A stretch of 64,000 bases of DNA from an uncultured delta proteobacterium (GTDB lineage Bacteria; Myxococcota; Myxococcia; Myxococcales; Anaeromyxobacteraceae), in contig CAWFDF010000009.1 in NCBI GenBank assembly GCA_963814585.1, positions 1-64,000 of the forward strand, written 5' to 3'. Under the pieces are notes generated by a model that was not told the DNA's origin, searched no databases, and saw only the letters and a program-made list of their open reading frames with translations. This document shows positions 49,068-58,937 of this stretch, one piece after another (positions within the stretch are counted from its first letter, which is position 1; each line of letters begins with the position of its first letter). A program made the position numbers and the translations under genes.

Positions 49068-50825
49068 TCACGGCGCCAGCAGGTCCCAGCCGTAGGCCTC
49101 GCGCTCCAGCGCGTCGTCGGCCAGCGAGGTGACCAGCGCGTCGTCGTTGGAGTCGACCCGGTGCAGGTTGCCGCGGATCCGGCTGCGCGCCGCGCGCGAG
49201 AAGACCCGGGCGATCTCCAGCTCGCGGGCCGCTCCCTTGTCGCCCCGCCGCTCCAGCGAGGCGGTGACGCGGGAGAGGACGCAGGCGGTGACGAAGAGGT
49301 CGATGAGCACGTCGGCGATCCGCCTGGAGACGAGCTGCTTGCCGATGATCTCCTTGCCATGTCGGCGCAGCTCGCGGTCGGCCACCCAGGCCACCTCGCG
49401 CACCAGCCCCTCGTAGTGCTCGCCGACCTCGGCCAGCGCCGGGTGGAGCTTGCTGAAGCTCCGCTTCTCGCCGACCAGGCCGGTCCGGATGGTGGCGTGC
49501 TTCATGGCGTAGTCGGAGAGGACGCCGAAGCCCTTGATGGGATCGTTCATGGCCCCCTTCAGCCCCTGGGCCAGCTCCTTGAGCTGGGTGCCGACCCGGT
49601 TCAGGGCGGTGAGAGCGATGAAGAGGCGGAGGATCTCGTTGGTGCCCTCGAAGATCCGGTTGATGCGGACGTCGCGGAGGATCCGCTCGTAGGGGAACTC
49701 GCGCATGTAGCCGTTGCCGCCGGCCACCTGCAGCGCCTCGTCGGCCGAGCGCCAGAGCGCCTCGGTGGCGAAGACCTTGGAGATGGCGGCCTCGACGGCG
49801 TAGTCCTCGTAGCCCTGGTCGGAGAGGCCGGCCACCACCCCCACCACGCTCTCGGTGGCATAGGCGTCGACCACCATCTCGCCCAGCTTCTGCTTCACCA
49901 GCCCGAACTCGGCGATGGGGCGTCCGAACTGGCGCCGCTCCTTGGCCTGCCGGGCCGTCATCTTGATGAGCGTCCGCATCCCGCCCACGCAGCCGCCGCC
50001 CAGCCCGGAGCGGCCGGCGTTGAGGATCTTCATGGCCGCCTTGAAGCCCTGCCCCACCTCGCCGAGCACGTGCTCGTCGGCCAGCTTGACGTCCTCGAAG
50101 ACCACGGTGGTGGTGTTGGAGGCCCGGATGCCCATCTTGTCCTCGTGCGGACCGGTCGAGACGCCGGGCAGGTCGCGCGGGACGATGAAGGCCGTCATGT
50201 GGGCCTTGCCGTCGCCGTTGCCCGAGGGCGTCTTGGCGAAGACCGTGTAGAAGCCGGCGATGCCGCCGTTGGTGATCCAGAGCTTCTCGCCGTTGAGGAC
50301 CCAGCCCCCGCCCTCGCGCCTGGCGTGGGTCCGGATCGAGGCGGCGTCGGAGCCGGCGCCCGGCTCGGTGAGGCAGAAGGCGGCGATCAGCTCGCCGCTG
50401 GCCAGCCTCGGCAGCCAGGTGGCCCGCTGCGCCTCGGTGCCGAAGAGGAGCAGGCCTCGCATGCCGATGGAGCTGTGGGCGCCCACGGTGAGGGCCACCG
50501 AGCCGTCGTGGGTGGCGATCTGCTGCAGCACGCGCGAGTAGGCGGCGGAGCCGAAGCCGAGGCCGCCGTGGGCCTCGGGGACGATGACGCCGAAGAGCCC
50601 GAAGGACTTGAGCTCGTCGAGGAACGCCGGCGGCATCTCGCCCTTCACGTCCCAGGCGCGGAACTCCTTCTCCTTCCCGCCCAGCAGCTGGTCGATGCTG
50701 GCGGCCACCTGCTCCACCAGCTCCCGCTCGCTCGCCTTCATGGTCGGGTAGGGGAAGAGGATCTCCTCCTCGATGCGCCCCATGCAGAGCGACTGGACGA
50801 AGCTGTCGACCTTCTTGTCGATCAC
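49068..50825 (-). CDS. Long (VLCAD/ACAD9-like) acyl-CoA dehydrogenase
   Basis: FCLTEPGAGSD, NGEKLWITNG, RIFEGTNEI; C-terminal extension. Confidence 0.92.
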   Translation of the reverse strand: MIDKKVDSFVQSLCMGRIEEEILFPYPTMKASERELVEQVAASIDQLLGGKEKEFRAWDVKGEMPPAFLDELKSFGLFGVIVPEAHGGLGFGSAAYSRVLQQIATHDGSVALTVGAHSSIGMRGLLLFGTEAQRATWLPRLASGELIAAFCLTEPGAGSDAASIRTHARREGGGWVLNGEKLWITNGGIAGFYTVFAKTPSGNGDGKAHMTAFIVPRDLPGVSTGPHEDKMGIRASNTTTVVFEDVKLADEHVLGEVGQGFKAAMKILNAGRSGLGGGCVGGMRTLIKMTARQAKERRQFGRPIAEFGLVKQKLGEMVVDAYATESVVGVVAGLSDQGYEDYAVEAAISKVFATEALWRSADEALQVAGGNGYMREFPYERILRDVRINRIFEGTNEILRLFIALTALNRVGTQLKELAQGLKGAMNDPIKGFGVLSDYAMKHATIRTGLVGEKRSFSKLHPALAEVGEHYEGLVREVAWVADRELRRHGKEIIGKQLVSRRIADVLIDLFVTACVLSRVTASLERRGDKGAARELEIARVFSRAARSRIRGNLHRVDSNDDALVTSLADDALEREAYGWDLLAP

Positions 50826-50902
50826 GGCGGCCTCCCGGAGGCGGGTCAGGGCCGCACGGTAGCCGGTTCGACGCGCCGCGGCAAGGACGATTGATTCTGA
50901 AA

Positions 50903-51694
50903 TCAGCGCCCCAGCACCGACAGCGCCGCCCCCAGCGCCCCCACCAGCTGCGGCTCGGGGAGCACCCGCACCGGCCGGCCCAGCGCCTCGGACAGCGCCA
51001 CCACCATGGCGGCGTTGAGCGCCACGCCGCCGCTCAGCAGCACCGGGCCGGCGCCGAGCTGGCCCCGGGCCAGCGCCGCCACCCGGGAGGCCAGCGCCAG
51101 GTGCAGGCCGCGGACGATCCCCTCGGCCGGCCGCCCCTCGGCCACCAGCGAGATCACCTCGCTCTCGGCGAAGACGGTGCAGGTGCTGGAGACGGTCACC
51201 GGAGCCTCGGCGCGCGCCGCGTACTCGGCCACCTCGGCCATCGGCACGTGCAGCCGCGCCAGGATCACCTCGAGGAAGCGGCCGGTCCCGGCGGCGCACT
51301 TGTCGTTCATGGAGAAGTCGGTGACGTCGCCGCCCGGGCCGATGGCGATCACCTTGGTGTCCTGCCCGCCCATGTCCACCAGCAGGCCGCCGCCGCCGGC
51401 CAGGGCGTGGGCGCCGCGGGCGTGGCAGGTGATCTCGGTGAGGACGCGCGCCGCCGCCACCCGCTTGCGGCCGTAGCCGGTGGCGCCGACCGGCAGCTCG
51501 GCGCCGGCCTCGGCCCGCAGCGCCGCGACCAGCCGGCCGCTCTGCTCCTCGATGCGCGGGTGGGTCGGCTCGAGCCGCCTCGCCAGCAGCGTGCCGTCCC
51601 GGTCCACCAGCACCGCCTTGCAGCTGGTGCTCCCCACGTCCACGCCGATGGCCGCGCCGGGTCCGGCCGCGCCGCGCTCGCCCCGGGCCGTCAC
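50903..51694 (-). CDS. Acyl-CoA dehydratase activase (HgdC/HadI type ATPase)
   Basis: GVDVGST, TGYGR, DMGGQDTK, MNDKCAAGTG, STCTVFAESE. Confidence 0.92.
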   Translation of the reverse strand: MTARGERGAAGPGAAIGVDVGSTSCKAVLVDRDGTLLARRLEPTHPRIEEQSGRLVAALRAEAGAELPVGATGYGRKRVAAARVLTEITCHARGAHALAGGGGLLVDMGGQDTKVIAIGPGGDVTDFSMNDKCAAGTGRFLEVILARLHVPMAEVAEYAARAEAPVTVSSTCTVFAESEVISLVAEGRPAEGIVRGLHLALASRVAALARGQLGAGPVLLSGGVALNAAMVVALSEALGRPVRVLPEPQLVGALGAALSVLGR

Positions 51695-54285: not shown

Positions 54286-56806
<2,521 letters not shown>

Positions 56807-56848
56807 GCCCGGCTGGAGGGGCCTGCCGTGAAGGGGCCCGCCGGACAT

Positions 56849-56879
56849 GAGAAGAGGCCCTGGTGTGGGGCCTCTTCTC
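56849..56879. terminator. Hairpin terminator, possibly bidirectional
   Basis: Perfect 12 bp stem GAGAAGAGGCCC / GGGCCTCTTCTC with 7 nt loop. Confidence 0.75.
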
Positions 56880-56996
56880 TTCGATCTTGGTCGCCCAGTC
56901 TCGGGCGCGGATCCGGCTCTCGCCGGTGGAGACTACGCAGATGTGAACGACTGCGTCGGTTCGGCTATCTGACGCCTCCTGGTTGGTGCCAGCACT
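56849..56996 (-). ncRNA. Candidate ~150 nt structured small RNA (family not recognised)
   Basis: Lies between a TTCACA-N17-TAGCGT promoter and the hairpin terminator; three internal stem-loops; no ATG-started ORF inside. Confidence 0.5.
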
Positions 56997-57002
56997 ATGA
57001 AA

Positions 57003-57031
57003 ACGCTACGCCCTTCGATCCGGCTTGTGAA
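57003..57031 (-). promoter_or_regulatory. Sigma70-type promoter
   Basis: -35 TTCACA (57031-57026), 17 bp spacer, -10 TAGCGT (57008-57003). Confidence 0.55.
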
Positions 57032-57198
57032 GTCACCAACCTCCACGACGCGACACTTCTGCGCATGATCCGGAAATCACTTGGAAAACCACCGTGGCCC
57101 GGGTGTGACCCGCCCCGGCGGGCGAGGTCGGTGGGCCGCTGCCGGGCGTGGCGGGGACGCGGTAGACTGTTGACTCCTCGTCCGATGGGAGGCACGTC

Positions 57199-57885
57199 AT
57201 GGCGGCTCCGCTGGCTGGCGTTCGCGCCGTCGTCTTCGACGCCTACGGCACGCTCTTCGACGTGGCCAGCGCCGCGGAGCGCACCCGCGACCTGCTCGGC
57301 GATCGGGCCGGGCCGCTGGCCGAGCTCTGGCGCCAGAAGCAGCTCCAGTACACCTGGCTGCGCGCCCTCATGGGGCGGCACGCCGACTTCTGGCAGGTGA
57401 CCGGCGACTCGCTCGACTACGCGCTCGACGCGCTGCGGATCGGCGCCCCCGACCTGCGCCGCCGGCTCATGGAGGCCTACGAGCGGATCGGCCCGTGCGC
57501 CGACGCCCACGACGCCCTCTCGCGGCTCAAGGCCGGCGGCCTCAGGGTGGCCGTGCTCTCCAACGGCGCGCCTCGCATGCTGGCGGCGGCGGTCCGCAGC
57601 GCCGGCCTCGACGAGCTCGTCGACCAGACGCTCTCGGTCGAGGCGGTCGGGATCTACAAGCCGCACCCCTCGGTCTACAAGCTGGCGGTCGACCGGCTGG
57701 GCGTCTGGCCGGCCGAGCTGGGCTTCGTCTCGGCCAACGGCTGGGATGCCTGGGGGGCCAAGGCGGCCGGGCTGAGGGTCGCCTGGTGCAACCGGGCCGG
57801 CCTGCCACGGGAGCGGCTCGGCGAGCCGCCCGACGTCGAGATCACCACGCTGACCCAGCTGGCGGCCGCCATCGGACTGCCGTGA
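57199..57885 (+). CDS. Haloacid dehalogenase type II (HAD superfamily)
   Basis: FDAYGTLFD, WRQKQLQYTW, LSNG, YKPHP, SANGWD. Confidence 0.92.
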   Translation: MAAPLAGVRAVVFDAYGTLFDVASAAERTRDLLGDRAGPLAELWRQKQLQYTWLRALMGRHADFWQVTGDSLDYALDALRIGAPDLRRRLMEAYERIGPCADAHDALSRLKAGGLRVAVLSNGAPRMLAAAVRSAGLDELVDQTLSVEAVGIYKPHPSVYKLAVDRLGVWPAELGFVSANGWDAWGAKAAGLRVAWCNRAGLPRERLGEPPDVEITTLTQLAAAIGLP

Positions 57886-58274
57886 CCCCCGCCGCCATCG
57901 CCCGCCACCGCCAGCTGCTGCTCTCGCTGCGGGCCCAGCTGCTCTCGTCGGGACCGGCCCGCATCGAGCCCAACCGCGCCGACCCCGCCACCACCGGCGT
58001 CGCCGACGAGGACGCGCAGGCGCTCTCCGAGATGCTGCAGGTGCTCGCCTCCAAGCGGAACGAGGGGCAGGCCGCGCAGCTGGCCCGCCTCGACGGCGCG
58101 CTGCGCCGGCTGGCCGAGCACGGGGAGGACTTCGGCCTCTGCGAGGAGTGCGAGGAGGAGATCCCGGCCCGGCGGATCCAGCTCATGCCATGGGCCACCC
58201 GCTGCGCCGGGTGCCAGGGGCGCCACGAGCCGAAGCTGGGCGCGCCGCGCCGGAAGCTGACCGACTACCGCTGA
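57882..58274 (+). CDS. TraR/DksA-family C4 zinc-finger protein
   Basis: FGLCEECEEEI..RI..PW..CAGCQ; GTGA overlap with the HAD gene. Confidence 0.85.
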   Translation: MTPAAIARHRQLLLSLRAQLLSSGPARIEPNRADPATTGVADEDAQALSEMLQVLASKRNEGQAAQLARLDGALRRLAEHGEDFGLCEECEEEIPARRIQLMPWATRCAGCQGRHEPKLGAPRRKLTDYR

Positions 58275-58355
58275 CCGCGGCTCGCCTCGGCGTCCCGGCC
58301 ATGTCATCCTGGGCCGGTACCCGCGCGCCCCGCGCCCGTCACCCGGAGGTCCCAC

Positions 58356-58937
58356 GTGATCGGCTTCCTCGTCGTCTTCGCCCTGCTCGTCGCCGTGGTG
58401 ATCCTCGCGGTCGGCCTCTACAACGGCCTGGTCCGGCTCCGGAACGCCTGCAAGAACGCCTTCAGCCAGATCGACGTCCAGCTCAAGCGGCGCCACGACC
58501 TGATCCCCAACCTGGTGGAGACCGCCAAGGCCTACCTGAAGCACGAGCGGGAGACGCTGGAGGCGGTGGTGCGCGCCCGCAACGCCGCGGTGACGGCCAC
58601 CGCGGCGGCGGCCGCGTCGCCCGGCGATCCGGCCGCCATGCGCGGGCTGGCCGGCGCCGAGGGCGCGCTGGGCGCCTCGCTCTCCCGCCTGCTGGCGGTG
58701 GCGGAGGCCTACCCGGCCCTCAAGGCCGACGTCACCATGACCCGGCTCATGGAGGAGCTGGCCTCCACCGAGAACCGGATCGCCTTCTCCCGCCAGGCCT
58801 TCAACGACGCGGTCATGGCCTACAACACCGCCCGCGAGACCTTCCCGGGCATGCTGCTGGCCGGCTCCTTCGCCGCCGCCGCGCCGTTCGAGATCACCGC
58901 CGCCGCCGAGCGCGAGGCCGTCAAGGTCGCCTTCTAG
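58356..58937 (+). CDS. lemA: LemA-family protein
   Basis: N-terminal TM, QIDVQLKRRHDLIPNLVE, EAYPALKA, TENRIAFSRQ. Confidence 0.93.
   Translation: MIGFLVVFALLVAVVILAVGLYNGLVRLRNACKNAFSQIDVQLKRRHDLIPNLVETAKAYLKHERETLEAVVRARNAAVTATAAAAASPGDPAAMRGLAGAEGALGASLSRLLAVAEAYPALKADVTMTRLMEELASTENRIAFSRQAFNDAVMAYNTARETFPGMLLAGSFAAAAPFEITAAAEREAVKVAF

Follow-up and report, generated by a model that had tools for sequence, protein, structure and literature searches.

What does the spacer between a fadH-like flavin oxidoreductase gene and a HAD hydrolase gene encode in a 64,000-nucleotide (nt) stretch of DNA from an uncultured delta proteobacterium of the Anaeromyxobacteraceae, a soil and sediment bacterial family with cultured members? 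The stretch (assembly GCA_963814585.1, contig CAWFDF010000009.1, positions 1 to 64,000; hereafter the window) had received a preliminary description from its letters alone, which proposed for this spacer either a stand-alone structured small RNA (sRNA) with promoter and terminator or a micro-peptide mRNA with a non-AUG start. Conservation among relatives supports both halves of this proposal together. Judged from that conservation, the element is a small RNA found across the family and not described before, with a micro-open reading frame (micro-ORF) whose non-AUG start is under selection, and the gene is almost certainly real. By comparison of its homologues it is a stand-alone gene with a promoter, a 3' structure, a selected Shine-Dalgarno (SD) sequence, a non-AUG start and an in-frame stop. 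In the window these parts are placed as follows.

56849 to 56996, minus strand: predicted RNA of about 148 nt, its start placed 7 nt past the -10 box and its end at the terminator stem
57026 to 57031, minus strand: -35 hexamer TTCACA of a sigma70-type promoter, from a site conserved across homologues
57003 to 57008, minus strand: -10 hexamer TAGCGT, 17 nt from the -35 hexamer, from conservation of site and spacer
56981 to 56996, minus strand: short A/C-rich 5' leader, from base composition over 74 loci
56975 to 56980, minus strand: SD sequence AGGAGG, 6 nt before ATA
56933 to 56968, minus strand: micro-ORF of 11 codons, ATA to TAG (16 codons in 48 of 74 homologues)
56928 to 56972, minus strand: 5' domain that can form P1, an imperfect helix joining the start-codon region to the last part of the ORF region; only partly formed here
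56913 to 56926, minus strand: hairpin 2, CCGGC/GCCGG, 94.8% paired in an unfitted alignment
56892 to 56907, minus strand: hairpin 3, CGCCC/GGGCG with a variable loop, from covariation
56849 to 56879, minus strand: terminal hairpin of 12 bp (arms 56879-56868 and 56860-56849), predicted and conserved

All motifs named in the preliminary description are present in the window sequence on the minus strand. The spacer is less GC-rich than its surroundings, as had been noticed, with 58% GC (56925-57074) against 70-80% in the flanking genes, of which the oxidoreductase gene is convergent and the hydrolase gene divergent. The region 56840-57000 folds with a z-score of -4.36, and none of 200 shuffled sequences was as stable. 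The first covariance model built for the family, R1, matches positions 56843-56997. The locus is single-copy in the source genome, where blastn finds no second similar or complementary locus. A generic promoter and terminator scanner called neither in the window, where the -10 hexamer has only three of six matches and the terminator has no separate U run, so that both assignments rest on conservation. Three metatranscriptome contig sets from the same study, compared with positions 54700-58300, did not cover the RNA, and the organism itself was not seen in them. From the comparison of genomes we infer that the RNA is transcribed and translated.

Homologues occur in 72 of the 92 Anaeromyxobacteraceae genomes searched, including the source genome. 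A blastn comparison with 60 relatives, a check suggested in the preliminary description, gave 17 full-length homologues, all from the same family. Of three covariance-model rounds (R1, R2 and R3), R1 identified members in 65 genomes and the later two added 7 more, each checked by eye. The other 20 family genomes, which include one complete genome (G035) and several of more than 94% completeness, contained no member. Outside the family, R1 found none in 107 genomes (19 candidates were scored per genome, and diverged relatives could escape), the two weak R2 matches among 31 genomes were plain terminators, and R3 reached a best E of 0.002 in 32 genomes, with 16 of 26 loci inspected being tRNA, terminators or coding DNA. 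These genome sets partly overlap, and few candidates were scored per genome. Matches in genome G097 (E 5e-6 and 4e-4) were rejected as members, being terminators. A pattern scan of genome contigs gave 43 stretches, 18 of which score as members (12 labelled Anaeromyxobacter or Anaeromyxobacteraceae, 6 uncultured delta proteobacterium); the other 25 were unrelated, mostly coding DNA. None of nine viral pattern matches scored as a member, a second pattern had no viral match, and blastn found no match to the RNA in phages and plasmids. One genome (G095) carries four dispersed copies (L043, L069, L070 and L071), three of them near-identical, each with its own promoter. The working set used below comprises 74 loci in 71 genomes, after removal of one duplicate (L084) and of a fragment at the end of a contig (L101); its loci are related, its genomes are not independent, and its gene calls are crude.

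The promoter proposed in the preliminary description is conserved. A promoter-like site was accepted with at least 6 of 12 matches, A2 and T6 being required in the -10 hexamer, and by this measure 72 of 74 loci keep a sigma70-type site upstream of the RNA, while control windows contain one in just 9 of 71 and 10 of 74 cases. Among 69 loci with the site, its hexamers are separated by 17 nt in 46, 16 nt in 19 and 18 nt in 4. The discriminator between the -10 hexamer and the predicted start (56997-57002) is AT-rich here and in close relatives, which is unusual in a genome of more than 70% GC; in Escherichia coli an AT-rich discriminator goes with activation during starvation. The next downstream gene lies on the same strand in 33 of 67 loci, on the opposite strand in 27 and was not called in 7; in this window it is convergent. 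The 81 flanking ORFs scanned (79 of the 123 called, plus 2) belong to many unrelated Pfam families, and receiver-domain genes stand beside the RNA at only a few loci. With downstream strand and neighbouring families both random, there is no fixed gene for which the RNA could be the leader or riboswitch. It resembles leader-peptide attenuators and upstream ORFs (uORFs) in that a short ORF overlaps an alternative structure ahead of a terminator hairpin, but it differs from attenuators in that neither the downstream gene nor its orientation is conserved, the ORF lacks a run of regulatory codons, and no conserved antiterminator could be seen. Its own predicted promoter and terminator with an ORF inside agree with the architecture of dual-function sRNAs. 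SgrS/SgrT, SR1 and RNAIII are sRNAs of this class with a small ORF, and their conserved peptides are made from ordinary starts. The RNA shares with them the stand-alone gene, the 5' ORF and the structured 3' part. In contrast to them, it avoids AUG, the length and middle of its peptide drift, and no pairing target stood out in the duplex scan described below.

The 3' structure is conserved along with the promoter. Of three stems in the preliminary description, those now called hairpin 2 and hairpin 3 are conserved, while the first, ACGCAG/CTGCGT, has all six pairs in only 2 of 74 loci. An 8-bp inverted repeat said to bracket the promoter (57041-57034 and 56988-56981) is present here and at none of the other 73 loci. 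This repeat and the ACGCAG/CTGCGT stem look like chance occurrences and not parts of the element. In place of that stem, a different predicted 5' helix, P1, covers the start codon in many members; in a MAFFT alignment 83% of its cells are paired and 3 of its 8 pairs show two-sided changes, and single-sequence folds of the 5' domain vary among members. An unfitted 18-row alignment predicts the terminal stem as well as hairpins 2 and 3. Hairpin 2 is near-invariant in sequence, and hairpin 3 has two-sided changes at 6 of 6 pairs in a model-fitted alignment and at 5 of 6 in the unfitted one. In the 65-row model-fitted alignment, which is biased in favour of the model, pairing extends to 97% of cells, and two-sided changes occur at 15 of 23 pairs. 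The perfect 12-bp terminal hairpin holds up as first described, and is probably a bidirectional intrinsic terminator. A stem of the form GAAG(A/G)GGCCC...GGGCC(T/C)CTTC also ends unrelated genes and a tRNA across the myxobacteria (L116, L124, L203, L205, L207 and L216). Family specificity of the terminator stem was dropped, as the same stem type ends other genes. Pairing of the SD sequence with the 3' strand of the terminator was dropped by eye for lack of covariation, with no calculation made.

In front of the micro-ORF, the 12 nt upstream of the SD sequence are 33% A, 36% C, 20% G and 10% T over the 74 loci. Both the SD sequence and the start that had been picked out in the window are conserved. 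The former is AGGAGG in 63 loci, GGGAGG in 10 and AGGGGG in 1, at 4-6 nt from the start, and the family median of anti-SD energy would rank among the top 7% by strength in a crude set of 3509 genes called in the source genome. With its third base left free, the start triplet reads ATA at 58 of the 74 loci and ATC at the other 16, never ATG or ATT, so the ATA of the window, for which the preliminary description had kept ATG as an alternative, is no sequencing slip. The tree of the RNA, as read by eye, contains about 6-8 changes of the start codon, all between A and C. Elsewhere in the alignment the variants of A are G in 183 cases, C in 163 and T in 55, with A-to-G the commonest, and given this substitution spectrum the chance of A/C-only start changes is roughly 1e-3 to 5e-3.

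The stop is kept as well. At 73 of 74 loci the reading frame meets a stop ahead of the terminator; the two other frames do so at 26 and 24 loci, and the shuffle expectation is 0.54 (70 loci). In 52 of the 74 the in-frame stop lies inside the loop of hairpin 2 (TGA in 40, TAG in 11, TAA in 1), and the ancestral ORF had 16 codons with its stop in that loop. Of 13 separate losses of the loop stop, picked by eye, 12 are made good by another stop, for which shuffling each locus gives P about 6e-4. The source genome is among those without the loop stop; its clade of 8 loci gained a stop at codon 12, 6 nt upstream of hairpin 2. In a held-out metagenome set, 80 of 96 pattern matches were taken as loci, 42 scored as members and 36 had hairpin 2 and the terminator. 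Of 23 new distinct metagenome copies, picked blind to the stop, 22 have one in frame, compared with 3 and 7 copies for the two other frames; these copies test the stop only, because the search pattern fixed the start. The peptide between start and stop is held less firmly. The ORF has 9-43 codons overall and 9-32 in the 73 loci with a stop before the terminator, frameshifted members persist, and the pairwise ratio of nonsynonymous to synonymous change (pN/pS) in 42 sixteen-codon rows is 0.44 in codons 2-6, 1.14 in codons 7-11 and 0.74 in codons 12-16, so that a purifying signal is confined to codons 2-6. Taken together, the micro-ORF very probably bears the signature of selected translation.

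Why, then, should translation be maintained from a start that ribosomes use poorly? IF3 lets AUG, GUG and UUG initiate but not other codons, and an AUU start is the means by which infC autoregulates (PMC4705826). In Staphylococcus aureus, conserved AUA and AUU starts behind strong SD sequences give about 10% of the output of AUG (PMC13009471). Among 10 other myxobacterial genomes, infC lacks a canonical start in 8, with apparent ATC, ATT or CTG starts (L334-L343), and in two of the 10 an ATG lies just 3 nt after the SD sequence, with ATC two codons later. The infC of the source genome (L038, G000:C14) apparently starts at CTG. With its conserved start other than AUG, GUG or UUG behind a strong SD sequence, the micro-ORF resembles the initiation sites through which IF3 autoregulates. 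Given the rejection of such codons by IF3 and the infC starts of this lineage, the RNA bears a type of start that would report the IF3 level. As in infC autoregulation, a strong SD sequence is conserved with an AUH-type start in place of AUG (PMC4705826); unlike infC, the start drives a dispensable ORF of 9-30 codons on its own transcript, and no protein-coding gene is controlled. By analogy, the RNA would work like the infC start site while being built like a dual-function sRNA or an operon-less attenuator.

The best reading of these observations, though a tentative one, is that the RNA is an independently transcribed minimal mRNA whose function is weak, IF3-policed initiation and not the peptide. 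If the RNA is transcribed and translated in this way, its dependence on IF3 and its output might take the following form. The strong SD sequence and the open A/C-rich leader would recruit 30S subunits readily. The AUA or AUC start would mostly be rejected by IF3 and translated only when initiation is lax, with little IF3 for the 30S present, as in the case of infC. Any ribosome that nevertheless initiates would open P1, translate 9-30 codons and stop ahead of the terminator. The act and rate of initiation, and not the peptide, would then set the fold and half-life of the RNA, and through these the availability of the 3' hairpin module, the presumed output, to a partner, making the RNA an IF3-tuned sensor in trans. 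A trans-acting gauge of initiation fidelity, an 'orphan uORF' gene whose small RNA changes in level or fold with the balance of IF3 to 30S, or itself titrates 30S or IF3, is possible but doubtful as a specific role. Through such a gauge the RNA may let the cell sense the strictness of ribosomal start-site choice.

Non-AUG starts behind strong SD sequences are known as cis controls of a few protein genes, infC foremost. A weak start and a stop that are both kept while the peptide drifts, in a free-standing gene, suggest that the stringency of initiation is read or buffered in trans. The literature searched, judged in part by title and abstract, contained no stand-alone RNA with a fidelity-gauge role or a non-AUG micro-ORF. 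The idea is testable, the RNA being small and present in complete genomes and its family having members in culture. At the least, the locus represents a new family-wide myxobacterial RNA family, one missed both by gene callers, which admit only AUG, GUG and UUG, and by Rfam.

Several points weigh against the preferred reading. P1 is partial, its inner pairs being formed in 54-77%, and it is absent in divergent members. The AT of the start codon pairs in P1, and conservation of the codon may thus be partly structural. Melting of hairpin 2 is not essential, because in the 8 loci of the source clade the stop lies 6 nt upstream of it. The RNA was not found in 20 of 92 family genomes and is therefore either not essential everywhere or too diverged there. 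As the loci are related, raw counts overstate the evidence, and the counts of events were read by eye from a 153-column tree. No RNA partner or target was identified in the duplex scan of gene starts, a weak test. Finally, the ORF conserves A-E-P-S/T/L-Q at codons 2-6 while codons 2 and 3 vary synonymously (GAA in 27, GAG in 29), the pattern expected of a functional peptide end.

This last point leads to the strongest rival, in which the product is a micropeptide, usually of 16 residues with the N-terminus A-E-P-S/T/L-Q, kept scarce by the weak start, and the hairpins only stabilise its mRNA. Glu at codon 3 (56 of 59) and Pro at codon 4 (54 of 59) are kept while third bases vary synonymously, the pN/pS of 0.44 in codons 2-6 compares with 0.94 and 1.25 in the other frames, and the ORF has 16 codons in 48 of 74 loci. 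However, several codons are fixed at the nucleotide level (CCG in 50 of 59, ACA in 40 of 59), codon 2 switches to residues that would alter removal of Met, lengths of 9-43 codons and frameshifts are tolerated, codons 7-11 evolve neutrally, and conserved structure outside the coding part makes up two thirds of the RNA. On balance, a micropeptide is a somewhat unlikely explanation.

If neither the peptide nor the reading of IF3 matters, the micro-ORF could serve as a ribosome cap or decoy, in which a bound 30S or 70S shields the 5' end from RNase J in the manner of STAB-SD sequences or is itself titrated. The stop would then just avert non-stop complexes, and the working part would be the module of hairpins 2 and 3 binding a protein. 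STAB-SD sequences are not known to have an ORF of their own, unlike this RNA, in which both start and stop are under selection, and what they protect is a real mRNA. Ribosome roadblocks act against RNase J1 (PMC3997798); a strong SD sequence near the 5' end and an RNase J in the organism are shared with these systems. RNase J is encoded in the source genome, what is strictly kept amounts to 'start weakly, stop before the end', hairpin 2 is near-invariant in sequence, and the four dispersed copies in G095 suggest dosage. Yet a cap needs no start codon, and AT[AC] is invariant at a spacing of 4-6 nt; 52 of 74 loci hold the stop at one place; and the candidate protein partner CsrA was not found in the source genome (92% complete). 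A cap or decoy is accordingly an unlikely account of the whole. A sponge of the CsrB/RsmZ type, which would carry several GGA motifs in its loops, was rejected, with only one conserved GGA, that of the SD sequence, and with CsrA (PF02599) not found in the 91.7%-complete source genome.

Nucleotide-level conservation around the SD sequence and codons 1-6 would also suit a sponge or base-pairing sRNA, in which the 5' domain mimics a translation start and baits an sRNA with an anti-SD sequence, or a segment pairs with mRNAs. The myxobacterial sRNAs Pxr and MXnc1 bind near SD sequences (bioRxiv 10.1101/2025.09.11.675593), a target neighbourhood that would fit this model. On the other hand, a blastn search of the genome gives neither another locus resembling the RNA nor one complementary to it. 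A duplex scan of three segments from four members against called gene starts, a weak test, gave no outlier over shuffled controls (top mean Z -3.29 against -3.17, -2.80 against -3.31 and -2.44 against -2.37). Complementarity to rRNA, transfer-messenger RNA (tmRNA) and 6S RNA is short and G-U rich, in a comparison run without a control. The selected stop is also left unexplained, and a sponge or base-pairing sRNA is improbable.

The preliminary description recognised no hallmarks of known RNAs, and the searches agree. An Rfam 15 cmscan of positions 55500-58500 gave five matches at E 2-9, all far below threshold, and 14 homologue loci gave one, at E 0.99. The source genome has one gene each for 6S (RF00013), the signal recognition particle RNA (SRP; RF00169) and RNase P (RF00010), all away from the locus. 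ARAGORN finds no tmRNA, an RNA marked by a tRNA-like domain and a resume codon that has no SD sequence, in the window, and the tmRNA of the genome lies on another contig (C8); the family model R3 has no significant match at that tmRNA locus. The tag frame of this tmRNA (L035, G000:C8:562147-562497) spells A-N-E-P-M-A-L-A-A and ends at a stop codon inside the loop of a GGCC hairpin, which resembles the micro-ORF only superficially. Pxr of the Myxococcaceae is a 108-nt, sigma54-driven RNA beside the response regulator gene pxrR/nla19, with a C-rich first loop (PMC5684412, PMC5568312 and PMC11928866). Like Pxr, the RNA is myxobacterial and intergenic, with several stem-loops and a GC-rich terminal stem; unlike Pxr, it has a sigma70-type promoter, stands free with no fixed regulator neighbour and is G-rich at its 5' end. 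The Pxr model (RF01812) has its best genome-wide match, at E 6.77 and 15.3 bits against 80, at another place. CreT has an efficient AUG or GUG start followed by tandem rare codons, lies in CRISPR-cas loci with a creA guide and acts by being translated and not via its peptide; SD sequence, mini-ORF and downstream stem-loop are features in common (PMC8501985). A CreT toxin was rejected, given 0 ATG in 74 loci and a codon table in which no two rare codons stand side by side. No Cas family was found among the 81 flanking ORFs scanned, within 1.5 kb flanks. That the RNA is a diverged member or remnant of Pxr, tmRNA, CreT or an attenuator leader is thus highly improbable: three 3' stems as in Pxr, the SD sequence, mini-ORF and hairpin as in CreT, and a local tmRNA tag that also has E-P early and Ala before a loop stop are set against the absence of any Rfam match (Pxr best E 6.8, elsewhere), separate tmRNA, 6S, SRP and RNase P genes, a family model that misses the tmRNA gene, and the lack of cas genes, of a fixed neighbour of the pxrR type and of a fixed downstream gene. 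No description of the RNA was found in the literature searched, a scope outside which lie subscription papers, supplements and the Myxococcus xanthus non-coding RNA survey cited in PMC8538405.

A few further features of the genome and the neighbourhood were recorded. ARAGORN reports two tRNA-SeC genes in the source genome. A gene for a C4 zinc-finger protein of the DksA/TraR type (57882-58274) follows the hydrolase gene and is linked to the RNA in only part of the genus. A 115-aa ORF with a signal-peptide-like start (54402-54747) has no Pfam match, nor does a small hydrophobic ORF of 61-63 aa that is convergent to the RNA in one subgroup (L086, L089 and L091). In three genomes of the genus (L039, L040 and L048) an acyl-CoA dehydrogenase gene lies immediately downstream of the RNA. 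A gene that appears similar by eye is found here 5.5 kb downstream (49068-51299), which suggests that the fadH-like block between the two is a later insertion.
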